Part shown: one piece after another, positions 20,661 to 59,718 of the stretch
Numbering within the stretch: position 1 is the first letter of the stretch
Layout of the letters: every line of letters starts with the position of its first letter
Source: Candidatus Multivoradales bacterium
GTDB taxonomy: Bacteria > Acidobacteriota > Thermoanaerobaculia > Multivoradales > JAHEKO01
NCBI GenBank assembly: GCA_965223155.1
Contig: CBDCVR010000013.1
Location: forward strand, 960,001 to 1,024,000
Direction of reading: 5' to 3'
Length of the DNA stretch: 64,000 nt
The notes under the pieces: generated by a model
Told to the model about the DNA's origin: nothing
The model's input: the letters and a program-made list of their open reading frames with translations, nothing else
The model's database searches: none
Position numbers and translations under genes: made by a program

Positions 20661-22196
20661 CTAGTGGCCACCCGACTCCGCCAGCTCGAGCTTGCCGTCG
20701 GCGTTAGGCTCGAGTCGGTAGACGTCCCACTTCTTCAGGCTACTGCCGCTCGAGCGGTCGCGCTCGAGTTTTTGGGCCATGAGCACCTTGTGGCCGTCGG
20801 TGCGCAGGTTGATGGCCCCGAAGACGGTGACGTTGCGCTCGAGGATCTTCTCGGTGACCTCCTTGAGTTTGGCGCGGATCACGTCCTTCTTGTCCGGGTC
20901 GGTCTCTTCGGCGAGATCGTCCTGGAGCTTGACCAGCTTCTGCTGCAGCTCGATCGGCTCGGCCTCGCGGGCCGAGCGGGCCAGCTCGGTCGAGAAGATG
21001 AGGGGCCGGTCCCCGCGCCCGAAACGGCCGATGGCGCCGAGCGTGTCCGAGCGCGGGTGGGCGTGCGATTCCTGGTCGCCGGACGAGACCACGGTCGCCG
21101 CCGGGTCGGTGGCTTCCAGGAACACGTTCATGAAGTCGGCGCTGCCATGGTGGCAGCTCTTGGCGACGTCACAGGAGAAGATCTCCCGCGCCAGAGCCAC
21201 GAAGGCGCGGTGCTCGTCGGGCTCGGCGTCCGGACCCGGCACCTCGCGTCCCAGATGCTGTTCCAGCAGGAAGCGCTCGGCGGCCCAGTTGAGATCGCCC
21301 GAAAGCAAGAGCGAGACGTTCCGGTAGCGCAGCTTGAGCAGGACCGAGTGGCCGTTCTTGGTCTGGCCCTTGTCGAAGCCGCCTTTGCCGAACCGCTTGA
21401 ACCAGCGCAACAGCGAGCGCTGGCCGTCGTCGGTCTCGACCACCGGGCCCAGGACCTCGATCGACAACTCCTGATCGGCCCCGTAGCCCGGCAGGAAGCC
21501 CTCCTCGCTGTGCGCCGTCGAGAGCATCGTGATCGCGTCCACCCGGCCGCTGGTGTCGGCCGTCGACAGGAGCTTGGGATAGCGCTTGTCGTGCTGGGGC
21601 TTGCTGCCCCTCCAGCGATGTCCCTGCTGGAGAAAGGCCTTGAGCCGCGAGCGGGTCTCCATGAGCTCGGTGAGGTAGCGGATCCCGTCGACGGTCTCGA
21701 TCTCCCCCAAGACCTTCTTGTGATCGTTCGAGCGGGCCTCGATGATGCCGTTGTGGTAGACGGTACCGAACGAGACATTGGGTTCCTCGAAGAGCTTCTG
21801 GAAGCCCCGGTAGTGGTCCTGATCGGGATGGCTGATGACCGCCGACTCGAACTTCCACTTCTTCTTGAAACCACCGTAGCGCCAGCGCAGGAAGCGAAAC
21901 ATGTTGTCGCGCTCGCCGGCGTCGACCACCATGTGCTTGTCCTTGGGCGTCACCACCAGGCACCCGTCCCCCTGGCCAACGTCAACGAAGACGACCTCCA
22001 GTAAGCGTTCCTCGGTCAGATCCTCGGCGCGCATGAAGCCGTCCACCCCGCGCACCCGAACCGGGAACCAGCCCTGGGACTTGGCGCCCTTGAGCCGGAC
22101 CCAATCGCCCCAGAGCAGCTCGTGGATGTTCCTCTTGTCGCCAGGCTGGGCGAAGACCTTGGCGGTTGGATAGGTAGCGTACAGAAATTCGGCCAT
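20661..22196 (-). CDS. ComEC/Rec2-like metallo-beta-lactamase-fold hydrolase with N-terminal SH3-like domain
   Basis: ELLWGDWV..GWFPVRVRGVDGFM (SH3-like); DVGQGD, SHPDQDH, SGDL, CHHGS and HAHP motifs; GGGAGG RBS. Confidence 0.82.
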   Translation of the reverse strand: MAEFLYATYPTAKVFAQPGDKRNIHELLWGDWVRLKGAKSQGWFPVRVRGVDGFMRAEDLTEERLLEVVFVDVGQGDGCLVVTPKDKHMVVDAGERDNMFRFLRWRYGGFKKKWKFESAVISHPDQDHYRGFQKLFEEPNVSFGTVYHNGIIEARSNDHKKVLGEIETVDGIRYLTELMETRSRLKAFLQQGHRWRGSKPQHDKRYPKLLSTADTSGRVDAITMLSTAHSEEGFLPGYGADQELSIEVLGPVVETDDGQRSLLRWFKRFGKGGFDKGQTKNGHSVLLKLRYRNVSLLLSGDLNWAAERFLLEQHLGREVPGPDAEPDEHRAFVALAREIFSCDVAKSCHHGSADFMNVFLEATDPAATVVSSGDQESHAHPRSDTLGAIGRFGRGDRPLIFSTELARSAREAEPIELQQKLVKLQDDLAEETDPDKKDVIRAKLKEVTEKILERNVTVFGAINLRTDGHKVLMAQKLERDRSSGSSLKKWDVYRLEPNADGKLELAESGGH

Positions 22197-43681: not shown

Positions 43682-44431
43682 CTAGCGGCCGGCGTCGGCC
43701 GCTTCCGCCATCGCCTCGCGGGCGGCGACGTCGTCCGACGACATGTCCACGGTCACCATGAAGCCGGTTGTACCGCTGAACTCGAAGGCCTTGTCTCCGA
43801 CCTTCCAGGTCTCGATCTCGTTCGGCATCATCTTGAACCCGTCGTTACGGGCGGCACCGAAGTACGCGATGTTGTTGAGAAAGCCGGGACCGCCGTCCAT
43901 GCCCGCCCACTTGTTGAGAGCGATGTGGGCCTTCTCGCCGCCGTCCAGCTTGGCCTCGGCCCGGTCCTCGGTAGCCATCCACTCGATGTCGCCATCCGCG
44001 GCAACCTCGAAGGACTTCCACTGCACCGGAAAGATGTGGCCCAGAGCCGTGGCGACACCCGCTTTCTGCGCGTCGGTCGTACCCTCTTGGAAGGTCACGA
44101 TCGCCCACTCGGTCTCGCCGTCCTCCCAGTTGTCACCCAGGTCCCCGGCGACCCAAAACCTGACTCCGGCCAGATCGGTGTCGCCATGGTGACCTTCGTT
44201 GACCTTGTAGGCCATGTTGAACTTGCAGAAGTGCTCGGGGTCGTGGGCCACATGGGAGGCGGGCTCGAAATTGAAGTAGCACTGGCAGAACATCGGACAG
44301 CTACAGGCCTCGATCACGGTTCCGTTGAAGTGCCAATCCTCGCCGTCGCCGGCCCAGACCATGGGCGCCGCCAGGATCGCGACAGCCGCCACGAGCGCAG
44401 CGCCAAGAAACCACGTTCTCTTTCGATTCAT
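43682..44431 (-). CDS. Secreted DUF1326 family protein
   Basis: Signal peptide; WHFNGTVIEACSCPMFCQCYF, HFC and GHHGDTDLAG. Confidence 0.78.
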   Translation of the reverse strand: MNRKRTWFLGAALVAAVAILAAPMVWAGDGEDWHFNGTVIEACSCPMFCQCYFNFEPASHVAHDPEHFCKFNMAYKVNEGHHGDTDLAGVRFWVAGDLGDNWEDGETEWAIVTFQEGTTDAQKAGVATALGHIFPVQWKSFEVAADGDIEWMATEDRAEAKLDGGEKAHIALNKWAGMDGGPGFLNNIAYFGAARNDGFKMMPNEIETWKVGDKAFEFSGTTGFMVTVDMSSDDVAAREAMAEAADAGR

Positions 44432-44744
44432 ACTTCCCTCCATGGATGGTCCAGGCGAGTTGTGACTCGCCCGGTGTTGCCGCCGGCGAAGCCGCTCCGC
44501 CGGCGCCTTACGAATGATCTACTGAACCTATCTCCAGCAATCGAAATCGTCAATCCCGCTCTGCCCGGCCTGGAAGGCCTCGCCGCCTTGCCAGATCGCA
44601 CCAAATAGTGCAACATTCGTTAACTCGTTAACGCGTGGCGGGAGTGACGCACGTTGGCGCTGGGCTCGGACGTTTGACCGGCCTAGGGGTAGAGGGCGGG
44701 GTGTCTCTACAGGCGAAACGGCCGGACCGGCAGGAGGGACAGCC

Positions 44745-46799
44745 ATGACGCAATTCCAAAATCCTTGTCGCCGGCTCTTCGGAGCCCTTCTCGTGACCTC
44801 GGTCCTCGGTGTGGCTCCGGCCAGCGGCAGCGACCCGCAGCTCGCTGATCCGCTGCCGCCACCGCTGTCCGAAAGCGAGACAATCCACGAGCGCATCGAT
44901 GTGCACGCGCAGCGGGCGATCGTCAGGCTCTCGCACGGCGCCACCTTCGAGGACCGCGCCACCTCGCGCTATCTCCTGCGTGGCGTCCAGTACGGTGTCC
45001 TGGGCGGCATCTACAAGGTCGATACCCAGGTTCCGGCGTTGCGAGCCCAAAGTCTTGGCCAGGGGTGGTGGACGCTGCTCGACGGGCGTCCGGCCGGATG
45101 CATGCTCGAACCGGCGCACGAGAAGCCCATCTTGATCTTCAGCAAGACCGTGGCGCCGCAGACCGACGCCCTGGCCCAGGCGCTCAAGACCGCTCTCGAC
45201 GAGTGCGGCTTCCGCCGGCTGGACGTTCTCGTGACCCGGGGCGGCTACCCCTGCACCGAGGCCTACGTCACGATCTCGAGCGAGCCCGTGGGGGTCGCCA
45301 ACGATCCGCCCTGCCGCACCTACCCGTCCGGTCTCTGCCGCTTCTACGTTCCCACCGCGATGTACGAGTTTCGCGTCACCTGCAACAGCGAGTCGACCGA
45401 CCCGGTGGGAATCTACCGGGCCGTAGCCCCCGGGGCTGGCGTCCAGACGGAAGCGTTCGATTTCGCCGGGGCTCCCGAGCCATCCACCCCACCGGCGCCG
45501 CCGCCGGCCACACCGCCGGGCACCACTCCCCCGCCGGGCTCACCGCCGGGGCAAACCACTCCGCCGCCACCGCCCACGACCAAGGGAACGCCACCGTCGA
45601 AGACGCCGCCGCCGGCGACTCCGCCTCAGGCGACACCTCCGGCCTACGGTCGCGTTCCGCTCGGCAAGCTGCCGCCGTCGACCAAAGGACCGCCGCCGAC
45701 CCCCTCCAAGCTCCCCCGCACTCGGATCACCCGTCCGCCCAGCCGCCTGCGCCTTCCGGGGCGCACGGCGACGCCGCCGTCTGAACCTCCACAACCTTCG
45801 GAGCCCCCGCCCACGGGAACGCCGCCGGCGTCCGTCGCGGTACGCGACTGCCCGGTCACGCCGGTTCGTGGCGGCCCTTGCTGGACGACCGAAGACGTCA
45901 TCAACTCGGCGATCGACCATCACGCCCAGAGCGCCTTGCTACGTATGTTCGCCGGCGGCGGCGTGCCGGCGGCCGAGGCCTCGCAGATCCTGTGCGCGGC
46001 CAAGGCGGGCGAGCTCGAGGGCGTGTACTTGCCGGACCAGCAGGTCCCGGCGCTCCGCGTCCGCTCTCAGGGCGGCAATTGGTGGGAAATGATTCCGGCC
46101 GGCAGCCATTCGGTCTGCTACCAGCCACCGCCCGACCGGGCGCCGCTGATCGCCTTCAGCAAGCAGATCAAGGACGACCGCGCTCTGGTGGCGATCGCAC
46201 TTTCCAACGCCTGGCACGATTGCAAGCTTCCGCCGACCGCGCCCCGCTGCTACGTCGCGACGATCTCCAAGCCCAAGCCCGAGCTGGTCTGCCCCCCCGG
46301 CACCATCCCGGATCCCGAGGGTGAGGTCTGCGTACCCCAGGTCGTCTGCCCGCCGGGCTCGGATCCGAAACCAGACGGCACCGGCTGCGTCGAGCGCGAG
46401 TGCCCGCCCGGAACGATTCCGGACGGTGACCTCTGCATTCTGGATCTGCCCGGAACGGTGCAGACACCGTGTACGCAATCCGAGATCGAGCAGCAGTTCC
46501 AGCAGAAGACCGACTTCTGCGCCTCGATCAAGTTCGGCCTCGACGCCGCCTGCGGCCTGGGCCAGAGTCCCTGCGATCATCTGCGGCCGGTAAAGTTCGG
46601 CTGCGACGTCTTCGAACGGATCTTCGGCAAGCCCATCCCGGGCGCCAAGCACCCGGCCTGCTCCGAGTCGAACGCCGGCTTCTACAAGAGATGCGTACTC
46701 TCGACCCTCGAGGGCGAACGCAAGACCCTACCCTGCACACTGCCGTCAGCCAGCGACCTGCGCCAGAAGTACGACTCCTGGCCCGGGAAGCAGAAGTAA
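44745..46799 (+). CDS. Secreted multidomain hypothetical protein (two copies of an unrecognised domain, Pro-rich linker, CPPG repeats, Cys-rich C-terminus)
   Basis: GGAGGG RBS; signal peptide; IDxHAQ..G[IV]Y..VPALR..WW..FSK domain twice; three CPPG-x(7-9)-C repeats. Confidence 0.8.
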   Translation: MTQFQNPCRRLFGALLVTSVLGVAPASGSDPQLADPLPPPLSESETIHERIDVHAQRAIVRLSHGATFEDRATSRYLLRGVQYGVLGGIYKVDTQVPALRAQSLGQGWWTLLDGRPAGCMLEPAHEKPILIFSKTVAPQTDALAQALKTALDECGFRRLDVLVTRGGYPCTEAYVTISSEPVGVANDPPCRTYPSGLCRFYVPTAMYEFRVTCNSESTDPVGIYRAVAPGAGVQTEAFDFAGAPEPSTPPAPPPATPPGTTPPPGSPPGQTTPPPPPTTKGTPPSKTPPPATPPQATPPAYGRVPLGKLPPSTKGPPPTPSKLPRTRITRPPSRLRLPGRTATPPSEPPQPSEPPPTGTPPASVAVRDCPVTPVRGGPCWTTEDVINSAIDHHAQSALLRMFAGGGVPAAEASQILCAAKAGELEGVYLPDQQVPALRVRSQGGNWWEMIPAGSHSVCYQPPPDRAPLIAFSKQIKDDRALVAIALSNAWHDCKLPPTAPRCYVATISKPKPELVCPPGTIPDPEGEVCVPQVVCPPGSDPKPDGTGCVERECPPGTIPDGDLCILDLPGTVQTPCTQSEIEQQFQQKTDFCASIKFGLDAACGLGQSPCDHLRPVKFGCDVFERIFGKPIPGAKHPACSESNAGFYKRCVLSTLEGERKTLPCTLPSASDLRQKYDSWPGKQK

Positions 46800-47277
46800 G
46801 CAAGGGACGGAACCTGAAAGGAGCTGAACGAGCATGAGAGTCCTTCGAGCCGTATCCACCGTCCTCCCTCTGTGCGCGGGCGCCGTCCTCCTCGCCATGG
46901 CTCTGGTCGCCGTCCCGGCGGCGGCCACGAGTCCTCGGGTCGCGGTCGATCAGTGCGCCGACATTCTTCCGGTTCCGGGCTGCTGGACGACCCAGGACGT
47001 GATCGACCCCCATATCGACTCCCACGCCCAGACCGCGCTCATGGGCATGCTGACGCGAGGCGGAGCCGATGGAGCCGTCGCCTCCGCCATCCTGTGCGCG
47101 GTCAAGCGGCGTCATCTCGAAGGGGTCTACCTGCCCGACCAGGGCGTGCCCGCCCTACGCGTCCGCTCTCAGGGCGGCAATTGGTGGGAGATGATCCCGG
47201 CCGGCAGCCACTCGGTCTGCTACAAGCCGCCGCCCGAGCGGGCGCCGCTGATCGCCTTCAGCAAGCAGATCAAGGAC
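46056..47277 (+). repeat. 120-bp dispersed duplication between adjacent genes (46056-46175 and 47158-47277)
   Basis: Manual alignment gives 114 of 120 nt identical, encoding RVRSQGGNWWEMIPAGSHSVCY[QK]PPP[DE]RAPLIAFSKQIKD. Confidence 0.9.
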
Positions 47278-47733
47278 GTCTCGACCGCGGTGGCCGCGGC
47301 CCTCACCTCGGCCTGGACCGACTGCAGCCTGCCGGCCACGGCGCCTCGTTGCTACTTTGCCACCATTACGAAACCACCGACGCCGGTGCCGCCCGGCGGT
47401 GGCGACAGCGGCGGCGGGGACACCGACAACGGCGACAACGGCGGCTCGACCGAGCCTCCGGCCACTGAAGGGCCCGCCACGGTCATCATCGACCTCAAAC
47501 GCGGTGGCGTTCCGTACGCGGGCAAGGCCCAAGTCTTCATTGCGAATCCCGACCATCAGGAGTGGGACGTGGTCACCGGTCAGGTGACGTTCACGGTGCC
47601 GCCCGGTGTCTATAACACCGCGGCGCGCGACTACGGCCTGACCGATTGCAAACTGGGACCCGCCACGCCGATCGTGGTTCGATCGAATGACACGCTGCGG
47701 TTCTCCCTCGAAGTCCCGGAATGCCTGCCCTAA
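46834..47733 (+). CDS. Secreted hypothetical protein sharing the unrecognised domain, with a C-terminal beta-sandwich
   Basis: AAGGAG RBS; signal peptide; third copy of the domain; Gly/Asp/Pro linker; FTVPPGVY. Confidence 0.8.
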   Translation: MRVLRAVSTVLPLCAGAVLLAMALVAVPAAATSPRVAVDQCADILPVPGCWTTQDVIDPHIDSHAQTALMGMLTRGGADGAVASAILCAVKRRHLEGVYLPDQGVPALRVRSQGGNWWEMIPAGSHSVCYKPPPERAPLIAFSKQIKDVSTAVAAALTSAWTDCSLPATAPRCYFATITKPPTPVPPGGGDSGGGDTDNGDNGGSTEPPATEGPATVIIDLKRGGVPYAGKAQVFIANPDHQEWDVVTGQVTFTVPPGVYNTAARDYGLTDCKLGPATPIVVRSNDTLRFSLEVPECLP

Positions 47734-47769
47734 CCGCAGAAACCAAGACGAAGGGATAGCGGAATCCAC

Positions 47770-50700
47770 TTGGCTCAGCCTGTCCTCAACCTTGGCGTTC
47801 TGCGCCGGCGCCCGCACCTCAGCAGCCCAAGCGATCCCAGTGATCGCGGCGGCAAGGGCGGGCTGACCGCGCCGGAGGACGCGCCCGGAAGGGACGGCGA
47901 TCTCTCCCGGCGAACCCTTCTGGGACTGGCGGGAGCGGCCACGGTCGGGCTGTCGCCGGCCGCCAGAGCGATCGAGACCGCGGCGCTAGGCCGCTACCGT
48001 CTGGAGCACGATCGGCAGCGGGCCATGTTCTCCCTGGGGACGGGCCACGTCTGGACGCTCGACGCCCGCCGCTTCGGCGGCCGGCCGTCTCTCGAGGTCG
48101 ACCGAACCGGCGGCGAGGTCCGCCTGACTCTGTCCGGCGCCCTGTTCCCGGGCACCCAGATTCCGGCGGATCTGGTTTGCCGGCTTGCTCCGGGAACCCT
48201 GGCCACTCGCATGGAAATCGCGTTCGGGCTCTGCGATCTCCGCGTGACCGCTGCCTTCGAGCCCTGGCTGGCGGGACTCGAGAAAGCCCGCGGCGTCCTG
48301 CGGCGAGCTGCGCGGGCGGAGGTCGCCGGCGACGGCTCAACCCTGGCGCTGGCGGCCCGCGGCGCCGCGACCTTCGGTCCGGATTGGATCCTGACTCTGG
48401 AAGGCACCGCGGTCGGCGAATTGGCTCTCGGCGGACCTGCTCACGAAGTTCGGCTGCCCGGAGACCGCATCGAGCTCGCTTTGCTGGCGGCCGGCACCCC
48501 CAGCTTGGTCGGCCGGCCGGCGCCGAAGCGCTGCCTGGTCACGATCGAGCGCGGCGACTCGGACTGGGATGCCGGCGTCTTGCTGCCCGCGCCCCCGGCC
48601 GGCCGGCTCGCGTGCGCGTCCGCCTCCGCCAGTCTGGTCCACGTCGAGTCCGGTTGCGATGACAACGTTTCGAAGACCGCGGCCCTCCTGGTCGAGCTTG
48701 ACGCCCTGACCTTCGCGCCGGCCGCGGGCCTCGCGACCCCGGACGGCGAGGTCTTGCAGATTCCGTTAGAAGACGTCCGCTATGGGCGCGTCCTGAGCGG
48801 CGCGGGCGCGGGAGAAGCCGCGCTATCGGCCCGTTTCGCACCTCGAGCGGTGTGGCTTGCGGCCGGCGACACCCGGCTCCAGATCGGCGGCCGATCGCGA
48901 GCGAGCGAAGAGCGCTTCGAGCTTCTGGGCACAGCCGAGGGCTTTCGCGAGATCCGGTGTCAACCCAGATTGTTCGGCATCCTGGCGCCGCTCGCCGGCG
49001 GCAGCGCCGGACTCATGAGGCCCCGAGCCGAAGCCCGGCTGGCCTTCGCCGGACTCGGCCGTCCGGGCCTACTGGCGCCGGCTGAAGCGACTGCCGGCGG
49101 CACCCAGCAGCGACGAGTCACGCCGCGGGTGATACGCCCTCAGACCCAACCCGAGGATCAAGCGACCTCGGACCGGCCCACCCTCGACGCTCGGCCGCGA
49201 GCCATGGACCGCGCCGTCTTGACGATCGCGGACGATCGTCTGACCCGCCTACGACTGCCTTCGAACCTGATTGTGTCGGTGCTCCGCTCCCGGGACTTCC
49301 TGGCCCTCGATTTCGAATTCGTCAACCTGCGGCTCGAGGCTTCGGCGCCCAGGCGGCTGGTCCGCTCGGACGCCGCCAAGCCGGCCTACGTGATCGTTCA
49401 CTTCCCGCCCCAGAGCGTGTACGAGCAGGCCTTCTATGAGGTCAGCGGATCGAGCGATGGCGTCGACTCGGACGGCAAACCCGTGCCCAGCGAGTCCGGC
49501 GGCAGCGAGCGGCTGCCGACGCCGCCGGTTCACTCACGGCTGTCCGGACCCAGCCGTCTCTCCTTCCGGCTGCCGCGCATCGTCAACGAGCTTCCCTACA
49601 CGCTCGAAGGATTGCTCGAAGCCTGCTTGACGATGCCGCTCGCCGTCGGCCGCAACGCGCGGCCCCCGGATCCACCGGTCCGCTCCGGGCAGCTCACCAG
49701 AGCCCTGGCGCTCCTGAGCGGCGCCACCGCGACGCGGGGCACGGTCGGGAGGGCCCCGGCCGGAACCGCGCGGGCGATCTCGGGCTCTCGGCGTGGAGCG
49801 GCTTCGACCGGATCGGCAGCCGCGAGGCTGAGGCAGCCCGGCAACAGGATGGACTCCACCGCCACTTCCACCGCGGCCCCGGGAGCCATCGGCCTGGTTG
49901 CCGGTCCGCCGGCCGAGCCGACGCCCGTCGAGACCGCGATCGAGATGCCCTATCGACTGATTCTGTCTCCGCACGGCAAGTCGGCCTGGTCGCATTCGGT
50001 CGACACCGGTCCGAGCCAGGAGGGCAGCGGCCGGCACGAGCTCTGGCACACGCGTCTGGCGGTCCGCGCCGGCGACGGCTCGGCCGACGAGCGCAACCGC
50101 CACTACCGCAGCGTGCGGGCGATCTGGTCGCCGGACTACAACGCCGCCAGGCCGCCCGACCATCAGAACCTCCCTTTCCGCTCGACCCTGGACGCGCGGG
50201 ACCGGCACGAGGTCGTGGCCTTGAGCTCGGACTTCTCGATGGCCGGATGGAAGCCGCTGCCGATCGCGGTCGAGCGCCTGATGCTGACCTCCCTCGGAGC
50301 CTGGCTGGACAGCCGCGGCGCCTGGGAGCCGCCGGGGTCGCTCGAGGTCGAGGAATGGAAGCATCGCGCCACCATGGCCCGCGACCACTACGTGCGGGTC
50401 GTCTACAAGGGCTACCTCTTTCCCTTCCGCCATCGCGCGTCGCTGATCAAGGTTACCCAACGCAAATTCCAGAAGATCCAGGACGGGCCGCAAGCCGGAC
50501 AGATCGCGGCCTTCCTGCGACAGCGCATGTTCATCGTGGTGCGCGAGCCCGAGCTGACCTATGACTACGCAGTGGCGAGCGGCGGCGCCCGCTGGGAACG
50601 CGAGAATCCTTTCAAGCGGGTGCGGATCACCACGCTCACCACGCCGGACCTGCTGGATCCCAACAGCCCCGAGTGCGAGGCCGCGCCCGGCTTCGGGCAG

Positions 50701-52467
50701 CAAGGCTTCTGGCCCAAGACCGCAAGCGGCCGCTTCGCCTTTCATCTGGTGGCCTGGGACTGGCAGGGACGCAAGAGCGACTTTTCGGCGCCGCTCATCT
50801 TCGTCGGCGCCTCCCGGGCCAGCAAGAAGAGCGATCTGGACGCGATCCAAGGAGGCTACGACGCCGAGACCGACGGCGGCGAGCCGACAGCCCAGACCTT
50901 CTTCGACGGCCAGAAGATCGCCTACGCCGCTCCCAAGGGAGCCAGCGACGAGAACACGGCTCTCGAGAGCGACAGCCTCACTTTTACCAGCCGCAACCAC
51001 GACGCGGCCGCGGGCGAGCCCGGCTTCTTCCCGGCGCTGAGTGAGGCGGAGGTCCGGATCCCGGCGGTGGACGCCCTGACCGGAGGCGGCCAAGCCTCCC
51101 GCATCGAGTACAGCCCGGTTTACGTGGACAACGGCTTTGCCGCGCCCACCAACGTGAGCGAGATCTTCGTCCAGATCAAGGGCGACTCGGGCACGCCCCT
51201 GCGCTTCGACGGGGACCGCTCCGGCGGTGTCGCCACGCCCAATCTGAACATCGCCGGACTGTCGCGGCGGTTCGGCCCGGTGGGCGGCCCCTTCTCCAGT
51301 CCGCCCGATCTCTCCGAGCTGGCCGGCGGCAACTTCGACCCCCAGAAATATTTCGAGGGCGCTGCCGCCAAGATCCTGGGGGGCATCCCGCTCGCCGACA
51401 TCATCAGCAAACAGTTCGGCGACGGCAAGAACGTCCCCAAGATGAGCACCGAGCTGGTCTATCCGGGCGGGGACGAGAGCAAACTTCCCGAAGCGACCCG
51501 GGCCGAGCTGCTCTGGGAACCGGACGTGATCGACGACCCCACGGGCACGTTCACGAAACGGAGCGGAACCAAGTTCCGCCTCAACGCCCGCATCACCCAG
51601 CGCTTCGACGCGGTCGGACAAGAGCCCGACACCGTGGTCGAAGGCGAGCTCACCGACTTCGACATCAACCTGATCCCGGTGGTGACCACCTTCCTGGTCG
51701 TCACCTTCAAGTCCTTCAGCTTCCGTTCCGAGAGCGGCAAGAAAATGGAGGTCGATCCCCAGATCCAGACGGTCGAGTTCGCCGGTCCGCTCATGTTCGT
51801 CAACGAGCTCAAGGACTACCTGTCCGCCGCCGGCATGAGCATCGACATCGGACCGCAGGGCGTCGAAGCGGGCTACTCCGTCGGCCTGCCCGCGATCACG
51901 GCCGGGGTCATGAACCTCCAGAACATCAGCCTCTCGGCCGGACTCAGCATCCCCTTCACCGGCGACCCGGTGCGCCTCAAGTTCGGCTTCTGCGAGCGCG
52001 AGAATCCATTTCTGCTCACCGTCTACTGCTTCGGCGGAGGCGGTTTCGTCGGCCTGGCAGTGGGACTGGACGGCGTCGAGCTCCTGGAGATCGCTCTCGA
52101 GTTCGGAGCCAACGCCTCGCTCGACATCGGCGTTGCCAGCGGCGGCGTCTACATCATGGCCGGGATCTACATCGCCGTCGAGGGCGACGAATGCGCGCTC
52201 ACCGGCTACCTCCGGATGGGCGGCGCGCTCGAGATCCTGGGCATCATCACCTTGTCGCTCGAGTTCTACATGTCGCTCACCTACGAGTCCAAGGGCAACA
52301 AGGTCTGGGGCGAGGCGACACTCACGGTCGAGATCGAGATCGCCTTTGTTTCCGTCCCGGTCGAGATGTCCGTACGCCGCGAGTTCACCGACCCCGAGCT
52401 GCCCAAGTTCAGCGACATGATGACCGACGGTGAGTGGACCGAATATTGCGAGGCGTTCGCGGCATGA
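47770..52467 (+). CDS. Giant hypothetical protein A (1565 aa) with twin-arginine signal and beta-rich C-terminus
   Basis: LSRRTLLGLAGAATVGLSPAARA Tat motif; GC3-rich codon usage; blocks ELWHTRL and RDHYVRVVYKGYLFPF; start (TTG) uncertain. Confidence 0.85.
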   Translation: MAQPVLNLGVLRRRPHLSSPSDPSDRGGKGGLTAPEDAPGRDGDLSRRTLLGLAGAATVGLSPAARAIETAALGRYRLEHDRQRAMFSLGTGHVWTLDARRFGGRPSLEVDRTGGEVRLTLSGALFPGTQIPADLVCRLAPGTLATRMEIAFGLCDLRVTAAFEPWLAGLEKARGVLRRAARAEVAGDGSTLALAARGAATFGPDWILTLEGTAVGELALGGPAHEVRLPGDRIELALLAAGTPSLVGRPAPKRCLVTIERGDSDWDAGVLLPAPPAGRLACASASASLVHVESGCDDNVSKTAALLVELDALTFAPAAGLATPDGEVLQIPLEDVRYGRVLSGAGAGEAALSARFAPRAVWLAAGDTRLQIGGRSRASEERFELLGTAEGFREIRCQPRLFGILAPLAGGSAGLMRPRAEARLAFAGLGRPGLLAPAEATAGGTQQRRVTPRVIRPQTQPEDQATSDRPTLDARPRAMDRAVLTIADDRLTRLRLPSNLIVSVLRSRDFLALDFEFVNLRLEASAPRRLVRSDAAKPAYVIVHFPPQSVYEQAFYEVSGSSDGVDSDGKPVPSESGGSERLPTPPVHSRLSGPSRLSFRLPRIVNELPYTLEGLLEACLTMPLAVGRNARPPDPPVRSGQLTRALALLSGATATRGTVGRAPAGTARAISGSRRGAASTGSAAARLRQPGNRMDSTATSTAAPGAIGLVAGPPAEPTPVETAIEMPYRLILSPHGKSAWSHSVDTGPSQEGSGRHELWHTRLAVRAGDGSADERNRHYRSVRAIWSPDYNAARPPDHQNLPFRSTLDARDRHEVVALSSDFSMAGWKPLPIAVERLMLTSLGAWLDSRGAWEPPGSLEVEEWKHRATMARDHYVRVVYKGYLFPFRHRASLIKVTQRKFQKIQDGPQAGQIAAFLRQRMFIVVREPELTYDYAVASGGARWERENPFKRVRITTLTTPDLLDPNSPECEAAPGFGQQGFWPKTASGRFAFHLVAWDWQGRKSDFSAPLIFVGASRASKKSDLDAIQGGYDAETDGGEPTAQTFFDGQKIAYAAPKGASDENTALESDSLTFTSRNHDAAAGEPGFFPALSEAEVRIPAVDALTGGGQASRIEYSPVYVDNGFAAPTNVSEIFVQIKGDSGTPLRFDGDRSGGVATPNLNIAGLSRRFGPVGGPFSSPPDLSELAGGNFDPQKYFEGAAAKILGGIPLADIISKQFGDGKNVPKMSTELVYPGGDESKLPEATRAELLWEPDVIDDPTGTFTKRSGTKFRLNARITQRFDAVGQEPDTVVEGELTDFDINLIPVVTTFLVVTFKSFSFRSESGKKMEVDPQIQTVEFAGPLMFVNELKDYLSAAGMSIDIGPQGVEAGYSVGLPAITAGVMNLQNISLSAGLSIPFTGDPVRLKFGFCERENPFLLTVYCFGGGGFVGLAVGLDGVELLEIALEFGANASLDIGVASGGVYIMAGIYIAVEGDECALTGYLRMGGALEILGIITLSLEFYMSLTYESKGNKVWGEATLTVEIEIAFVSVPVEMSVRREFTDPELPKFSDMMTDGEWTEYCEAFAA

Positions 52468-55400
52468 TCGAACGGATCGTCTGGACCGTGCTTCCCAACG
52501 GCATCGCCGACGGGCATCTGCGCCTGTCGGTCTTCATCGCGCCCCAGCTCGACCCGTCACCGCAACCGGCGAAGCTGGCCACGTTTGCCAACTGGCTGGA
52601 CTGGCCGGCGGTGGTGGCGGGCCTCGAGTTTCAGGTCTCGTTCGGCTCGGCCTCCGGTACGGCGGCCACTGTTGCGGGTGTCCTCGACCCGGCCAGCTCG
52701 GCACCCGACTCGAACCTCTGGAGCCGGCTCTTCGGCGCCGACACGCCGCTTGCGGTCTTCCAGCACAAGAAGCTCGACAAGCGGGTGATCCGGTCCTTCC
52801 CCGCCGCCAACATCGTCTCGTATCTCGAGAAGCCCTACCGGGCCTGCGCGGTTGACAGCGCGACCCGGACGCCGCCGATTCACATCCTGGCCGATCCCGA
52901 CAGCGGCTTCGGCCGTATCGTGCGTCCCGAGGTGCTGCGCCGGTTCGCGGCCGTGGATCGCGACGCGGCAATGATGCGGGCCGGTTCGGCGACCGGAGCC
53001 ACCGCGCGCTCTGGCGCGCGCTCAGACCCTGGGCGGAGCCGCGCCTCGGCCCGAACCGGCGGCGCGCGCCGAATCGTGGACGCCGAGACCCAGACTCGGT
53101 TGATCGCCGACCTGCGCCGGGACGTCGCCCGCGAGCTCGAGCCCAAGTTCTCAGGGCGGAAGTTCATCCGCGCGGCACCGGTGGATCCGGAAAACGACTT
53201 CCTCCAAGCCCGGCTCTTCCAGCTTCCCAAGCGGACCAAGCGGCTGCCGGACCGGATTCAGCTCCCGGACATGGATTTCCACCGCCAGCTCTCGATCCTG
53301 GGCCAGCACCCGGAACTGCTACGACGGACCGGGCTGGTCGTCGACCTCAGGATTCCCCTCAGCGGCCCCGGGGCGCCTCTGGGCCTCGCCGGCCAGGGGC
53401 AGGTATGGCTCTCTCTCGCCTCGCAACCCGCGGGCGCGGCCTGCGAGTTTCCCCGCACCGAGTACGCCTTCAACCCCGAGCTCCCCGGGGGCGCGGCCTT
53501 CCACGCCCGTCCCGGCGCCGGCAGCGACCTCGCCAACAGGCTTCTGGCCGCCGGCGGAAAGCGTTTCGAGGTGCTCCAGATGGACGTAGACGGCGCCGCC
53601 CAGAAAGCGGTGCAGCTCGCCGACAACATCTACCGCACGATGTCGCCCCGGCACCGAACGACGGGCTCGGCCGAAACCGTATCGATGCCGTCGCTGCGCT
53701 CGGCCGGTCTGTCCCTGGTCCGCACCGGCCGTGCCGAGCTCTTGCACACGGCCTTCATTCGGGCACGGAGTCACCGCGAGGCGATCAAGACTCGTGCCCC
53801 CGTTTCACTCTTCGCCGAGGACCTGATGCGAGGTTACCGGGTGGACGTCTTTGACGGTTCAAACCCGGGCGGTGGTGCCTGGCGCTCGCTGTGCCGCCGG
53901 CTGGCCAGCTATACCTTGACCGACGACGATCGTCCGATCGCGGTCCAGGACGAGGAAGGCTGGGCGGCCACGGCAACTACCGAAGCCGCAGCCGCAGAAG
54001 CCTCCGAAGAACGCGACCTCTACGTCCAGGAGTCGCTCTTCCGCTGGAGCGGTTGGAGCCTGGTCACGCCGCGACCCGGCAAGCTCCTGGACGACAAGCA
54101 GGAGGCGGCCCGCGCCCGCCACCAGCCGGGCACCGGCCTGCCCTTGCTGGTCGAAACCCGAGCGGCGCCCGGCAGCTTGCCCAAGCTTCGCTTCGGAGCC
54201 GCCTACCGGCTGCGTGCCCGCGCCGTCGACCTCGCCGGCAACAGCCTGTCGCTGGACGACGCCGACCGCCTGCCCGAGACCGTGGCCAACCAGACGGCAA
54301 CCTACGCCGTCACCTACCGCCGGCACGAGGTCATCACGCAGCCGGTTCTCCGGCTCCGCCGTACCCTCGACGACTCTGGACCGGGCGAAGGCATGGAGCG
54401 GCTGGTTCTACGATCCTTCAACAAGGGAGCGGTGCAACCGGAGGAGCGAGTGGCGGATTCCGAGCTCTCTCCCGACCGCAACGAGCGCCACGTCGCGCCG
54501 CCGGGCACCGGTCAACTCACCGCTGAGTGTCACGGCCGCTTCGACGGTCCCCAGGGCCCGAGCCCGGCCACCTACGCCGCCATCGTCGGCCACGAGGGAG
54601 AGTTCGACCGGGACGTGTACAGCGAAGATCGTCTCGAAGTTCCTTATCTGGCAGACCCGCCGGCCCGCGGCGCGGCGTTCGTGGGATTGCCGGGCTCGAA
54701 GCCGCCGGACAACACCGTGACCCTTCATCGCGCCGACGGCCGGGTCGAATCCTGGCGGCTGGTACCCGAGCCCAGGACCCCGGTCTCCGTGGTCCAAGTC
54801 GAGTACGGCCCCTCGCCCTGGCCCGACAACGAGCCTTTCCGGCTACGCGCGGTCGCCACGCAGACCGGCCGCGATCCGGAATGGGATCCCAACCAGCGCA
54901 TCCTGACCGTCTTCGTCCGCCCGGGCGAGACGGTTCCGGTGCGCTATTCGTCCTTCCCGGCGACCGAGGACCTGGGGGCCATGGCTGCCTGGCAGTGGAT
55001 CCAGGACGCCGGCCGCGTTCCCCAGCTCGAGGGCCGCGTCCTGGCCGGGCTGCATTGGATGCTCACGCCCTACCGCGAGCTGACCCTGGTCCACGCGGTC
55101 CAGAGGCCCTTGGTCAAGCCCGAGTTTCAATCGCTTGCCAGCCACCGCATCGAGGGCCAGACCAGCGCCGATCTGGAAGACCGGATCCCATTGAGCGGCA
55201 AGAGCACCTCGCGCCTGGACGTCCGGAGCCGCTGGCTGGAGCCGGTGGACGAGGGAGAGGCGCCCCGCTGGGTCGAGCGGGCGGCCCATGCCTTCGACAT
55301 GACCATCGAGGCGCACGAGACCGAAGCCAAGTTCGGTCCCCACCGCAGGCTGACGCGGCTGCCGGTCCGGCAGGTTCTGGAGCGCCCGTCCCTGGCCAAA

Positions 55401-56981
55401 GCCGCAAAGCGCGTCGAGGCGGTGCCACCCGAGGTCCGAGTACTGCGGCCCGAGGCCACAGCCCCGCGTGCCCGCAGGCAAGTGCAGCGCAGCGGTACGT
55501 TTCGACCGATCGGCCGGGTCGAGCGCGCCCGCCCGGAACAACGGCGCCTGCCGGCCCAAGCCGTCTCGCTGGACGACGCCGAGATTCAAGCCCGCACCCG
55601 CACCCTGGGCCGGCACGAGTTCGGGGACACCAAGCACCGGCCGGTGACGTACACGGCCGTGGCCTCGTCCCGCTATCGCGACGATCTGCCTCTGCGCTCC
55701 GAAGACATCGACAAGGCCGAGGCCGAAGGCGGCGACCATCGCGTCACCCGGCGCTCCGAGCCGATCACCATCGACGTCCTGAGCGCCGCCCGGCCGGCGG
55801 CGCCCGCGGTGGCCTATGTCATTCCGACCTTTGGCTGGGAGTCCGCGAGCGCGGGGGCCGAGCGCACCAGCACTCGCCGGGGCGGCGGTCTCAGGGTGTA
55901 CCTCGAGCGGCCCTGGTTCTCCTCGGGCGAGGGCGAGCTTCTGGGCGTTCTGGTGCCGCGGCAGTCCGCGCGAGCTCTCAATCTGGCGACCGCGCGGCGC
56001 ACGATGAGCCGGCGCGCCACCGGGGTCGATGCCGCCGAGCTCGACGCCTACCTCACCCACTGGGGCATCGACCCGATCTGGGGGACGAACCCGCCCGGCG
56101 GTGCCTCGCCGGGGCTGTCGAGCTTCCGCAACGCGGCCGCCACCGAGTCGGAGGTCGCGCTGGTCGAGATTCCGGACGCCCGCGTGGCGGTGGCCGGCTT
56201 CACCGTTGGCGCCCGCACCGACGGCGGCGGATTCACCGGCTACGACGCGGAGCGAGGTCTCTGGTACGCCGACCTCGAGATCGACCCGGGCGAGTCCTAC
56301 TTCCCCTTCATTCGCCTGGCTCTTGTCCGCTATCAGCCCAAGTCGATCGCCTGGAGCGGCGGCGACCTCAAGCTGTCCCGAGTCGTGATCGCGGACTTCG
56401 CCCAGCTCGCTCCGGACCGCACCGCGACCATTACCCAGCGCTCGGCCACCGAGCTTTCGGTGACCGTCTCAGGCGTCACCGCCAAGGAGTCCGGCGAGCA
56501 GAAGTTCGGAGCAGTGGCCAGCGTGCGCAGGCCCGATCTCGAACGGGCCGCCTCGGCGCCGTCGCTCCGAAGCTCCGCCACCGCCCGCGTCCTCCGGCCG
56601 CCGACCGACGTCCAGGCGCCGGTCGCGGGCCGGCGTCCCTCGATCGTAGCGGGTCCCGAGATCCGGGTGCTGCCAGCGGCCAGCACCGGCGGCAACAGCG
56701 TGGAGGTGAGCCTCGAGACGCTGGTACCCGGCGGCAGCGATCTGGAGTGGATGCCGGTGCCCGACTCGACCGTCGAGCTCACGCCGGGACCGGCCCTGGG
56801 CCGCCGCGCCAACTGGCGCGGCACGGTGCCGCTCCCCGAGGCCCGCGGCGCCGGACGCTACCGTCTGGTCATCAAGGAGTACGAGTGGTTCGTGGTGGAC
56901 GGCCCCGACGTCCAGGTGGGCAACGAGATCCGCAAGCCGACCGCTCCGCGCTTGGTCTACGCCGACGTTCTCGAGATCTAA
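52464..56981 (+). CDS. Giant hypothetical protein B (1505 aa), no signal peptide, FN3/Ig-like motifs
   Basis: ATGA overlap with protein A; starts MIERIVWTVLPNG; YRLRARAVDLAGNS, RHEFGDTKHR and GLRVYLERPWFSSGEGELLGV. Confidence 0.85.
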   Translation: MIERIVWTVLPNGIADGHLRLSVFIAPQLDPSPQPAKLATFANWLDWPAVVAGLEFQVSFGSASGTAATVAGVLDPASSAPDSNLWSRLFGADTPLAVFQHKKLDKRVIRSFPAANIVSYLEKPYRACAVDSATRTPPIHILADPDSGFGRIVRPEVLRRFAAVDRDAAMMRAGSATGATARSGARSDPGRSRASARTGGARRIVDAETQTRLIADLRRDVARELEPKFSGRKFIRAAPVDPENDFLQARLFQLPKRTKRLPDRIQLPDMDFHRQLSILGQHPELLRRTGLVVDLRIPLSGPGAPLGLAGQGQVWLSLASQPAGAACEFPRTEYAFNPELPGGAAFHARPGAGSDLANRLLAAGGKRFEVLQMDVDGAAQKAVQLADNIYRTMSPRHRTTGSAETVSMPSLRSAGLSLVRTGRAELLHTAFIRARSHREAIKTRAPVSLFAEDLMRGYRVDVFDGSNPGGGAWRSLCRRLASYTLTDDDRPIAVQDEEGWAATATTEAAAAEASEERDLYVQESLFRWSGWSLVTPRPGKLLDDKQEAARARHQPGTGLPLLVETRAAPGSLPKLRFGAAYRLRARAVDLAGNSLSLDDADRLPETVANQTATYAVTYRRHEVITQPVLRLRRTLDDSGPGEGMERLVLRSFNKGAVQPEERVADSELSPDRNERHVAPPGTGQLTAECHGRFDGPQGPSPATYAAIVGHEGEFDRDVYSEDRLEVPYLADPPARGAAFVGLPGSKPPDNTVTLHRADGRVESWRLVPEPRTPVSVVQVEYGPSPWPDNEPFRLRAVATQTGRDPEWDPNQRILTVFVRPGETVPVRYSSFPATEDLGAMAAWQWIQDAGRVPQLEGRVLAGLHWMLTPYRELTLVHAVQRPLVKPEFQSLASHRIEGQTSADLEDRIPLSGKSTSRLDVRSRWLEPVDEGEAPRWVERAAHAFDMTIEAHETEAKFGPHRRLTRLPVRQVLERPSLAKAAKRVEAVPPEVRVLRPEATAPRARRQVQRSGTFRPIGRVERARPEQRRLPAQAVSLDDAEIQARTRTLGRHEFGDTKHRPVTYTAVASSRYRDDLPLRSEDIDKAEAEGGDHRVTRRSEPITIDVLSAARPAAPAVAYVIPTFGWESASAGAERTSTRRGGGLRVYLERPWFSSGEGELLGVLVPRQSARALNLATARRTMSRRATGVDAAELDAYLTHWGIDPIWGTNPPGGASPGLSSFRNAAATESEVALVEIPDARVAVAGFTVGARTDGGGFTGYDAERGLWYADLEIDPGESYFPFIRLALVRYQPKSIAWSGGDLKLSRVVIADFAQLAPDRTATITQRSATELSVTVSGVTAKESGEQKFGAVASVRRPDLERAASAPSLRSSATARVLRPPTDVQAPVAGRRPSIVAGPEIRVLPAASTGGNSVEVSLETLVPGGSDLEWMPVPDSTVELTPGPALGRRANWRGTVPLPEARGAGRYRLVIKEYEWFVVDGPDVQVGNEIRKPTAPRLVYADVLEI

Positions 56982-57058: not shown

Positions 57059-57898
57059 TTACGGACAGGTCCAGAAGGCGCCGGTGTCCGTAATCGGTTC
57101 GAACTGGTGGTTGCCCGGGTTGTCGTAGGTCCGCGCGTCACCGGTCAAGGTATCGAGGATGGTCACCTCGAACTCGACGTTGGTGGTCGCGGCGGCGAAC
57201 ACCCAGAAGTTGGAGAAGGCCGGATCGCCGCAATGATCCAGAACCTTGACCAGGAGCTCGGTGGTGAGCGGGAAGAACTGGAAGGTCGCCGAGTCCCGGC
57301 CGGAGCTATCCACGAAGAGAGGCCGCACCGTACCGTCGAAGGGATCTTTGAACTCGGCGTCGACCTGGAACCGGCCGCCGCGCAGGCAGGCGGTCGTGTC
57401 GGACGCCTGACAGGGTGGCGGCGGCGTCCCGATCGTGCAATGACAATCCAGCGAACTGATCCTCTTGCGGTTCAAGAGATCCACCTCGCCGAAGAAGAGG
57501 GATTGCGTTCCAAGGACCGCACTCAGATCGAACTCGGCCGCGAAGTAGCCGTTGCCCCGAGTCCTGCCCCGCGCCGAGCCGAGCGGCATTTCGGTCCCGA
57601 ACGCGTCCACCGCGGTGCCTTCTAGATTGACGACCACGCCTCTACGAGCCTTACCCTGATTGACTGCCTGGCAGGAACAGCGGGCCATGGTGGCCGTCAC
57701 GTTGGACCCACCCGCCAGGAGCAACCCGTCTGCCACTTCGAACTCGCTCAAGAATCTCTTCGCGGGCACGGATTCCGGACAGGCTAGCTCGAGACCAACG
57801 TGCACCGGCAAGGCCTCGTCTCCCCAGCCCGGAGCCGCTACGACAAGAACCATCCAGGCCGCCATCCCCGCCGAGCGCAACTGCAATCTTCCAATCAT
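57059..57898 (-). CDS. Secreted Cys-containing hypothetical protein with a distinct ~100 aa C-terminal beta domain
   Basis: AGGAGA RBS; signal peptide; PPPPC linker then CLRGGRFQV..ELLVKVLDHC..FWVFAAATTNVEFEVTILDTLTG..YDNP..PITDTGAF. Confidence 0.78.
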   Translation of the reverse strand: MIGRLQLRSAGMAAWMVLVVAAPGWGDEALPVHVGLELACPESVPAKRFLSEFEVADGLLLAGGSNVTATMARCSCQAVNQGKARRGVVVNLEGTAVDAFGTEMPLGSARGRTRGNGYFAAEFDLSAVLGTQSLFFGEVDLLNRKRISSLDCHCTIGTPPPPCQASDTTACLRGGRFQVDAEFKDPFDGTVRPLFVDSSGRDSATFQFFPLTTELLVKVLDHCGDPAFSNFWVFAAATTNVEFEVTILDTLTGDARTYDNPGNHQFEPITDTGAFWTCP

Positions 57899-58058
57899 CG
57901 TGACTCTCCTTCGGGCGACTCTTCCGTTGTCTCGACCCCACTTCCTTACACCAGGTATTACCATGTAGACTTGGGGGCGAGCAACCGCTTCGAGCCGGCC
58001 GGTCCTTGACTCGCGCTGCCGATCGGCGAGCGGGAGCGGCGAGATCCAAACGCAACCG

Positions 58059-59093
58059 ATGCCCCGAAGCCCCCTACTCGAGTCGCCCGAAACAATCCAA
58101 GGAATCGGCGAGGTCTACTCCGCCCGTCTCGGCGAGCTGGGCCTGACGTCGCTGACCGATCTGCTCCGGGCCTCGGCCGGCTGGGTCGCCGGGTACCTGG
58201 GTGTGGATCCCGAGCGGGTCGAGGCCTGGCAAGCTCAGGCAATCCTGCTGCGCTTGGACGAGACCGACCCCGACATTGCCGAAGCGCTGGTGGACGCCGG
58301 GCTCGATTCGACCACAGCGGTGGCCGACGCGGCTCTCTCGACTCTCGAGGGCGCGATGGCCGACGCGGTCGAGGCTGGACGGCTGGCCGAGGCGCCTTCG
58401 ACAAGTCGCCTCTCGACTTTGCACCGGGACGCGACCGCCAAGAAGGGGACCGGGGTGGTCGCCGGCAGCGTGACCCACGACGACGACCAGCCGGCCGCCG
58501 AGGTCGTCGTGTCTTGCGGCGGCACCTGGACCCGTACCGACGAGGACGGCGTCTTCGTGCTCGACGCGGTGCCCACGGGCAGCCACCGCCTCAGCGTGAC
58601 GGCCGAGGGCCGGCCCAATGCCAACCTCCAGATCTCGACCGCCTCCGACGAGGTTGCGGTCAGCCTGGCGATCCGAGTGCAGCGGACGCCGGGGAATCCG
58701 GCGCCCAGTCACGACGAACACCAGGGCGTGCTGGTGCGGATCGCCCGCGGCGCCGAGCTCCGGCTCGAGACCGTCCAGCTCGACGAGCTGCCGGCCGATA
58801 CCTACGTCATGGTGCGCAACATCGCCGGCCACGGCTCGACCCGGCTGATCGAGCTCTACAAGACTCAGACCGGCGGCGACATCGTGGTCCGGCGAGTCTA
58901 CGTCGATCAGAGAGAGCTCCCCGAGGGCTCCAAGGTGGGGGTCATTCTCAAACGCGTCGCCGGTGCGTTCGAAGTCACCGAGCTCAGCGTCGAAGACGTG
59001 GCCCGCCAAAAACTGGAGGCGATCCTGGGACCGCTCACCTTGGAGAGATCGGCGACCCGGCAAGTGTCGGCGTTGAGCCTCAACCAGGCCTGA
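58059..59093 (+). CDS. Helix-hairpin-helix (DUF4332-like) plus carboxypeptidase-regulatory-like domain protein
   Basis: IQGIGEVYSARLGELGLTSLTDL and AEALVDAGL; VAGSVT..TRTDEDGVFVLDAVPTGSHRLSVTAEG. Confidence 0.7.
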   Translation: MPRSPLLESPETIQGIGEVYSARLGELGLTSLTDLLRASAGWVAGYLGVDPERVEAWQAQAILLRLDETDPDIAEALVDAGLDSTTAVADAALSTLEGAMADAVEAGRLAEAPSTSRLSTLHRDATAKKGTGVVAGSVTHDDDQPAAEVVVSCGGTWTRTDEDGVFVLDAVPTGSHRLSVTAEGRPNANLQISTASDEVAVSLAIRVQRTPGNPAPSHDEHQGVLVRIARGAELRLETVQLDELPADTYVMVRNIAGHGSTRLIELYKTQTGGDIVVRRVYVDQRELPEGSKVGVILKRVAGAFEVTELSVEDVARQKLEAILGPLTLERSATRQVSALSLNQA

Positions 59094-59094
59094 C

Positions 59095-59718
59095 ATGTCC
59101 CAGACCATCTACTACTTCGACGGCAGCAGCGGCTGCGACCGCTGCGTGGGAGCTAGCGGGTACTCGCTTGAATCGCCCGAGCGCCCCCACGACGAGTGCG
59201 ACTGCCCGGTCACCGAGTACGAGGCCAGCGATCTCGACTTCTGCGAACGCAAGCTGCGGAATCTCTCGATCACCGAATGTGAGGACTACGTGAGGGCCAG
59301 CGAGTCCTTCGAATACTGCGGCCGCTCCGGCGAAGGAATCATCCTCCAGGTCGGCGAGGACAAGGTCGAGAACTTCGATCCCGGAGTGCGCGAGCTGGCC
59401 GAGGAGAGCGGCTGGCAGCCCCCGGACATCGATCTCGAGTTTCCCTTCGGCGCCGCTCACAACGCGGTTACGGAGGTCAACTACACGATCTTGCGGTATA
59501 TGGCCTACTTCGAGGCCGAGGTCTACTACGTCTGCGAGCTACCCGACGGCCCCACCGAGGAGATCGTCACCGGAGAGACCGCCACCGGAGAGTTCGAAAC
59601 CAACTACCAGGCCTACCTCAACGACCTCGGCGTCGAGCCCTGCTCGCGCGAGGGTCCTCATCCCGAGGACATCGACGTCGAGGTTCTCGACGAAGAACCG
59701 CCGCCGGACCTCAGCTAG
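59095..59718 (+). CDS. Acidic hypothetical protein with N-terminal CxxC..HxxCxC motif
   Basis: Starts 1 nt after the upstream stop; GCDRC and PHDECDC; GC3-rich codons. Confidence 0.7.
   Translation: MSQTIYYFDGSSGCDRCVGASGYSLESPERPHDECDCPVTEYEASDLDFCERKLRNLSITECEDYVRASESFEYCGRSGEGIILQVGEDKVENFDPGVRELAEESGWQPPDIDLEFPFGAAHNAVTEVNYTILRYMAYFEAEVYYVCELPDGPTEEIVTGETATGEFETNYQAYLNDLGVEPCSREGPHPEDIDVEVLDEEPPPDLS

Follow-up and report, generated by a model that had tools for sequence, protein, structure and literature searches.

A mobile pair of giant bacterial proteins without a recognised family, possibly exported together by the twin-arginine pathway

Introduction

The known hitchhiker proteins of twin-arginine translocation (Tat) are cofactor-bearing redox enzymes of modest size. 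Two accounts of the pathway describe partners lacking a signal that are exported together with a subunit bearing a Tat signal, the E. coli PaoABC heteromer among them (PMC10924467, PMC4273604). Here we describe a cluster of four co-oriented genes, A, B, Giant 1 (G1) and Giant 2 (G2), at positions 44745-56981 of a 64,000-nt stretch of a Candidatus Multivoradales genome (contig CBDCVR010000013.1, positions 960,001 to 1,024,000; hereafter the window), and in particular the two giant proteins that close it. As in the Tat hitchhiker heteromers, an S/T-R-R signal is present on only one of two adjacent, coupled partners, and the genome of the G1-G2 pair likewise encodes TatC. Unlike the Tat hitchhikers, G1 and G2 showed no cofactor motifs, are ~1,500 aa each, and place the twin arginine after a conserved N-region of 45 residues; their co-export is something we infer.

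The Tc (ABC) toxins resemble the pair in other respects. They too are very large proteins encoded by adjacent genes, without a dedicated immunity gene and with signal-less forms, and they too have a patchy, plasmid-borne spread that includes the Bacillus cereus group. Unlike the Tc toxins, neither the giants nor 70 of their homologues contain a Tc Pfam family (TcA, TcB, or TcC/RHS), and the giants have no PDB match and no repeats. G1 also often carries a Tat signal, and we know of no Tc protein that does.

Results and Discussion

Conservation and spread of the G1-G2 pair

G1 (47770..52467, + strand, 1565 aa, TTG start) and G2 (52464..56981, + strand, 1505 aa) overlap by 4 nt, the sequence ATGA serving as the stop of G1 and the start of G2. 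The longest G2 frame begins at a GTG at 52434 (1515 aa), while the database record takes the ATG at 52464 as its start. Each giant has a GC of 0.86 at third codon positions, which matches the other window genes and indicates that both are real coding frames. Related loci were collected from a scan of one genome per species, in which 80 were kept out of at least 549 stretches with a G1 relative; individual loci are cited below by L numbers. A G2 relative lies directly downstream of G1 on the same strand in 76 of the 80. Two of the exceptions, L040 and L058, are contig fragments ending within G1; in the other two, L037 and L046, a Peptidase_M3 gene stands a few hundred bases downstream of G1 in place of G2, and each of these genomes has two G2 homologues elsewhere. 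In a plasmid collection, 22 records carry G1 and 17 carry G2, all 17 being among the 22, and G2 adjoins G1 in 16 of the 16 strongest G1 matches. Between the distance matrices of the two giants the correlation is r=0.94, a value reached by 0/999 Mantel permutations (n=45, comprising 44 loci and the window; the other 36 of the 80 loci were dropped as both genes were not recovered whole by ORF picking, and related sequences inflate the statistic). The two giants, read in the initial annotation as the components of one machine, are thus a near-obligate pair.

The surroundings of the pair show no such constancy. Flanking protein families recur in at most 8 of the 80 loci, and no Pfam family occurs twice among 43 close co-oriented neighbors. 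A conserved small downstream immunity gene of the kind expected for a polymorphic toxin was likewise sought among the flanking families, and no third gene family exceeds that figure of 8 loci. On annotated Bacillus, Rhizobium, Streptomyces, and Diaphorobacter plasmids, the pair appears as two "hypothetical proteins" among unrelated genes. Because the pairing is conserved while no flanking family is found in more than 8 loci, the unit is G1 and G2 and not all four genes. The initial annotation had presented the four as a single operon and candidate system, which does not hold as a conserved arrangement since genes with the domain shared by A and B adjoin the pair in no more than 2 of the 80 other loci. 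The functional unit is a horizontally mobile, translationally coupled two-gene module, G1 followed by G2. Since the two proteins evolve together, they most likely form one complex. An apparent G1-G2 fusion ORF in L044 was found to be an open upstream frame and was rejected.

The species-level genomes with a G1 relative number at least 549 and belong to many phyla. They include Armatimonadota, Acidobacteriota, Chloroflexota, Ignavibacteria/Chlorobi, Nitrospirales, Symbiobacteriaceae, Actinomycetota, Cyanobium, Geobacter, Alphaproteobacteria, Chthoniobacter, and candidate division WS1. Carriers that can be worked with in the laboratory include Cupriavidus metallidurans CH34, Rhizobium, Streptomyces, and Bacillus cereus group members. 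Across phyla, the giants retain 35-45% identity over their full length. Among 60 relatives of the window's genome only two have a G1 match, both at ~40% identity, and none of four genomes of the same genus has one; these counts come from a stricter first look and represent a floor. The window's own genome has one G1 copy. Several carriers are large plasmids, none of 50,697 phage records contains a G1 relative, and a collection of 2.9 million viral contigs contains only one locus. The rarity of G1 among close relatives and its presence on large plasmids are the pattern that a horizontally moving accessory module leaves.

Two contigs binned as archaea (L066 and L067; Methanothrix and Methanomassiliicoccaceae) also carry the pair, with G1 lacking a Tat motif; these copies could reflect gene transfer or binning error. 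On a Rhizobium ruizarguesonis plasmid (L091:8878-21145), G1 is annotated as two ORFs of 837 and 519 aa, and a patatin-like phospholipase gene follows the pair.

Searches for known relatives

The initial annotation had seen no recognizable enzyme, phage, or secretion-system signature in the four proteins, and searches of Pfam, NCBIfam, PADLOC, PHROGs, and PDB bear this out. No family was assigned at curated level to A, B, G1, or G2 by Pfam, NCBIfam, PADLOC, or PHROGs; PADLOC 2.0 returned 0 families for all four, and PHROGs a single sub-threshold match (E=0.047). For the giants, Pfam gave nothing at E<=0.1, PDB sequence searches gave nothing, and PDB profile searches gave 0 matches at E<=10 for either protein. 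When Pfam was extended to E<=5 over 33 G1 and 37 G2 homologues, no weak family recurred except TAT_signal (2/33). A motif scan of the giants revealed no P-loop, DEAD, or cofactor motifs. G1 and G2 are unrelated to each other by hhalign, and no internal repeats were found when 15 segments of the two were compared all-against-all by the same program (105 pairs, best probability 2.1%). Homologues named in their source are all hypothetical or uncharacterized save one G1 homologue, P0108, assigned to the apolipoprotein A1/A4/E family (PF01442), and in a protein atlas the G1 clusters are labelled only "hypothetical". A literature search, with supplementary gene lists outside its scope, matched none of four peptide motifs and found no description of the pair; its Tat-related matches were general papers on the pathway.

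A match of the giants to a characterized family along their length, which would have spoken against an undescribed system, was not found in any of these searches. Neither Pfam nor PHROGs detected a tail, sheath, or baseplate protein of the kind expected of a contractile injection system or phage structure, and the pair is missing from the 50,697 phage records; tandem repeated domains, as expected of a repetitive adhesin or S-layer protein, were also not detected. By these comparisons, the pair shows the hallmarks of none of the Tc, contractile-injection, defence, polymorphic-toxin, or repetitive-adhesin families. The pair appears new at the level of sequence and profile searches, which may leave a remote kinship of fold unseen. 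It amounts to ~3,000 residues of strongly conserved protein without a recognizable domain or solved relative, a delimited piece of protein dark matter.

Export signal and domain structure of the giants

G1 carries a predicted twin-arginine signal at residues 46-67 (47905..47970, + strand). S46-R47-R48 opens the segment SRRTLLGLAGAATVGLS (residues 46-62), which includes a Gly/Ala-rich h-region and is followed by P-A-A-R-A, placing an A-R-A site at residues 65-67. The segment contains both an S/T-R-R-x-F-L-K-like motif and a mildly hydrophobic h-region. Its twin arginine at 47-48 lies behind an n-region marked by a conserved LNLxxLR motif (residues 6-12; 47785..47805, + strand), a loose version of which occurs in 45 of 102 G1 database homologues that start with Met. 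A Tat-like motif with an h-region is present in 58 of the same 102, at a position of 38.5 in the median. Of 59 complete G1 ORFs from the genome loci, 41 have it, many in the canonical SRRxFLK form, and PF10518 (TAT_signal) matches 2 of 33 G1 homologues. The Tat machinery is represented in the same genome by TatC on contig 15 (PF00902, 225 bits). None of 116 G2 homologues has a Tat motif or a hydrophobic N-terminus. An extracytoplasmic site is plausible for G1 because of its Tat signal. The extracellular or envelope location first proposed for the system is likewise plausible from this signal and from the signal peptides of A, B, and two neighbor families described below (f2 and f9). The roles first suggested for it, as scaffold, translocon, or lipid conduit, found no support; G2 lacks any hydrophobic segment, and in G1 the C-terminal domain is of only moderate, beta-type hydrophobicity.

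The N-domain of G1 (residues 70-460; 47977..49149, + strand) occurs only in long forms of the family and is absent from forms of ~1000-1200 aa. The core that follows consists of two blocks, residues 500-640 and 715-1000 (49267..50769, + strand), with a low-complexity linker between them. Invariant core residues are E725, E757, W759, H760, R783, R812, R871, R898, and D997; across 120 sequences, E725, E757, H760, D997, four Arg, and four Trp are invariant. The sequence HELWH at residues 756-760 (window 50035-50049) was considered as a zincin HExxH site and rejected, as the family consensus replaces the first His with Thr and only E757, W759, and H760 are invariant within it. The C-terminal Gly-rich domain (residues 1290-1565; 51637..52464, + strand) is conserved to its last residues and has many invariant Gly. 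It contains the most hydrophobic stretch of either giant, although a moderate one, and its periodicity is of beta type, not helical, in most of the 24 windows examined. Our guess is that this domain may be a membrane-contacting module.

In G2, the conserved blocks span residues 1-180, 225-985, and 1045-1505, with many invariant Arg, Trp, Asp, and Tyr. The second block includes DLAGN at 589, an instance of a D-x-A-G-N motif that we take to be characteristic of Ig-like surface domains. A PG_binding_1 domain (34.3 bits, cut-off 23) closes one G2 homologue. All five peptide blocks quoted in the initial annotation were located in the translations by peptide search: ELWHTRL at 757 and RDHYVRVVYKGYLFPF at 871 of G1, and LFRWSGWSL at 525, RHEFGDTKHR at 1050, and VYLERPWFSSGEGE at 1145 of G2. 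Its description of the giants as Trp/Arg/His-rich applies to the conserved blocks, which are rich in Trp and His, but not to the whole proteins (Trp 1.2-1.7%, His 1.2-1.7%). The linkers are only mildly basic (median charges +3 and +3.5).

Proposed explanation and alternatives

We tentatively favor, as a possible and by no means firm explanation, that the mobile G1-G2 module encodes a complex exported by Tat with G2 as a hitchhiker and with an envelope- or membrane-directed role. The coupling of the two genes, the co-evolution of their products, and the one-sided signal suggest that G1 and G2 may fold and assemble in the cytoplasm, that the Tat translocase would carry G1 out by its twin-arginine signal, and that signal-less G2 would leave alongside it. 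Once outside, the complex would be active in the periplasm or on the cell surface, jointly with the Sec-exported A and B. Among possible activities, we rank first, as a guess, an envelope- or membrane-directed role, either toxin-like or as a surface assembly, in which the Gly-rich, beta-amphipathic C-terminal domain of G1 would meet a membrane. A bolder version, in which a new exported two-subunit machine of ~330 kDa is the largest Tat cargo, the G1 beta-domain inserts into a target or outer membrane, and the whole serves as toxin, translocon, or surface device without kinship to Tc, contractile-injection, and two-partner systems and is assisted by lineage-specific secreted helpers (A and B here, f2 and an outer-membrane barrel elsewhere), seems to us unlikely.

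Several observations weigh against export of a complex by Tat. The motif is absent from 18 of the 59 complete genomic G1 ORFs, and neither giant has a signal in the plasmid copies of Bacillus, Diaphorobacter, and Rhizobium, so that export is not universal or proceeds by other routes. Judged from these sequences, Tat export appears to be common in the family and either not universal or replaced by other routes in some members. Residue 46, where the twin-arginine motif of G1 lies, is a late position within a signal peptide, and at ~330 kDa a G1-G2 complex would, to our knowledge, exceed the size of known Tat cargoes. At 1.45, the maximum hydrophobicity averaged over the family falls short of a typical membrane helix, and the evidence for the guessed activity consists of hydrophobicity patterns. 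Finally, a search for forms longer than 2,635 aa found no G1-G2 fused protein, although this is weak evidence. Tat co-export, if true, would raise the upper size known for Tat cargo and represent a new kind of exported machine; should it fail, the pair would still be an unclassified mobile module present in culturable hosts.

The invariant residues of the giants could alternatively form the active and binding sites of an enzyme complex, periplasmic or secreted, that acts on a polymer such as polysaccharide or cell-wall material by cutting or modifying it. The invariant E725, E757, H760, D997, four Arg, and four Trp of the G1 core in 120 sequences and the many invariant Arg, Trp, Asp, and Tyr of G2 are consistent with this, as are the Tat signal of G1, the peptidoglycan-binding domain of one G2 homologue, and the lectin-like, BACON, Ig, and CarboxypepD_reg modules carried by A/B relatives. 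However, no hydrolase or lyase was matched even at E<=5 over the 33 G1 and 37 G2 homologues, no PDB profile matched, no transporter or utilization-locus context recurs, and signal-less versions exist, and we consider a polymer-active enzyme doubtful. If the two giants made up a structural surface layer or an adhesin, this would explain their size, the export signal of G1, and the secreted accessory proteins, and the D-x-A-G-N motif of G2 points the same way. A structure of this kind is very improbable given the lack of internal repeats (best of 105 segment pairs, 2.1% hhalign probability), the 35-45% full-length identity across phyla, which is unusually high for surface layers, and the rarity of the pair, which argues against a basic envelope part.

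Signal-less homologues are numerous enough to raise the question of an intracellular system, such as an anti-phage or anti-plasmid defence, in which the twin-arginine segment would be a membrane anchor or irrelevant. The patchy distribution (2 of 60 relatives, 0 of 4 in the same genus), the presence of a self-contained two-gene module on plasmids, and single loci beside DUF4276, EVE, integrase, HNH, or helicase genes would all suit such a system. We find it improbable, since PADLOC matched none of the four proteins, P-loop and DEAD motifs were not seen, the lone HExxH match in G1 is not conserved, the recurrent neighbors are exported proteins, and the pair is in no phage record and in one locus among 2.9 million viral contigs. 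Canonical Tat motifs in 41 of 59 G1 ORFs, and never in G2, also argue against an intracellular system.

Genes A and B

The four ORFs of the initial annotation, of 684, 299, 1565, and 1505 aa with gaps of 34, 36, and -4 nt, were borne out by the ORF list and by direct reading of the DNA. Genes A (44745..46799, + strand, 684 aa) and B (46834..47733, + strand, 299 aa) both start with ATG and are predicted to encode secreted accessory proteins; the 34-nt gap separates A from B and the 36-nt gap B from G1. Purine-rich, ribosome-site-like sequences precede B (an AGGAG-like stretch) and G1 (GAAGGG). Within the cluster, a simple scan detected neither a credible promoter nor a credible terminator, with 2 weak terminator-like sites against 6.8 expected from shuffles.

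Both proteins were described at the outset as Cys-rich with signal peptides, and both do have hydrophobic N-terminal signal-like segments, with 27 Cys in A (3.9%) and 9 in B (3.0%). By hydrophobicity, the signal-like N-terminus of A covers residues 1-28 and the signal peptide of B ~residues 1-31, both on the + strand, as are the features that follow. A then has a first copy of a domain shared with B (~residues 40-165; 44862-45239; 34% identical to B), a Pro-rich linker with 48 Pro in 121 residues (residues 240-360; 45462-45824), a second copy (residues 364-509; 45834-46271; 70% identical to B), and a Cys-rich C-terminal part. B has one copy (residues 36-180; 46939-47373) followed by a short C-terminal domain. 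This A/B domain is a disulfide domain of ~140 aa, and these three copies are the only ones in the genome.

Among 1.84 billion proteins, the A/B domain family has 368 representatives at E<=0.001. In 132 relatives scanned, the partner domains were CarboxypepD_reg (13), eCIS_core (6), BACON_2 (5), Ig-like (3), and hemopexin, PG_binding_1, ricin lectin, and Trypsin_2 (2 each); the partners appear mostly typical of secreted proteins. Of 149 relatives, 107 have at least 100 further residues after the A/B domain. Invariant positions of the domain are occupied only by Ala, Gln, and Trp, and none by Cys, His, Ser, Asp, or Glu. A likeness to the toxins of extracellular contractile injection systems (eCIS) concerns A and B only. 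According to the relevant passages of Geller et al. 2021 (PMC8213781), toxin domains sit behind DUF4157 (eCIS_core), the domain found in the 6 of 132 relatives, and 8 of 149 representatives have an HExxH N-terminal of the A/B domain, at the position where those passages place toxin domains. Unlike the eCIS toxins, A and B themselves have Sec-type signals, neither contains eCIS_core, and the A/B domain shows no invariant catalytic-type residue.

The two other loci with A/B-domain genes beside the pair are L006, where four lie in tandem downstream of it (L006:19044-22217), and L025, where four lie upstream and one is fused to Peptidase_S8 (subtilase; L025:3129-9793). These genes, grouped as cluster f28, align with the A/B alignment at 100% hhalign probability. 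A close B relative lies on a contig of 65,491 bp, and G1 and G2 homologues lie on a contig of equal length. A metagenome scan for A/B-domain loci returned one 3.7-kb locus, too little to measure linkage to the pair. Because the domain adjoins the pair in so few other loci, we regard A and B as lineage-specific accessories whose link to the pair is real. Their proposed role as upstream cargo or specificity factors found no support; in L006 the A/B-domain genes are downstream of the pair.

Other neighboring genes

Other lineages appear to have other helpers than A and B. Family f9 proteins (~650-700 aa, with a signal peptide) are encoded directly beside the pair in four loci (L007:7931-9907, L017:6600-8711, L034:17754-19709, and L056:19485-21437). 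They have no Pfam or NCBIfam match, and their C-terminus has an alternating hydrophobic pattern and a terminal Trp, like an outer-membrane barrel. Family f2 proteins (315-700 aa) have a signal peptide and a conserved N-terminal block, QPPPNQLKVADLW, and flank the pair in six loci (L007, at 6065-7876 and 19192-21234, and L004, L017, L034, L056, and L061); in L037 and L046, more distant members of the cluster are found several kb away from the orphan G1. A sub-threshold match to Peptidase_C71 (E=0.002) was seen in one f2 member. Together, f2 and f9 flank the pair in Ignavibacteria-like, Chlorobi-like, and some other loci.

Directly upstream of G1-G2 on a Bacillus bombysepticus plasmid is a 142-aa gene (L090:8240-8668) whose annotation reads papain-like cysteine protease and which has no NCBIfam match. 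This protein, f2, f9, and the A/B domain are mutually unrelated by hhalign. In a Symbiobacteriaceae locus, a gene for DUF4276, which we take to be a defence-associated family, lies directly upstream of G1 (L003:9102-9710); the family occurs in 1 of the 43 close neighbors.

In the window, the cluster is flanked on both sides by opposite-strand genes, at 43682-44443 and 57059-57964. The upstream gene and the downstream genes at 57059-57964, 58059-59093, and 59095-59718 were considered as parts of the system and rejected, each occurring in 0 of the 80 related loci. The gene at 58059-59093 encodes a DUF4332 plus CarboxypepD_reg protein. Further downstream, a TonB-dependent receptor with an N-terminal CarboxypepD_reg domain is encoded at 61144-63999.

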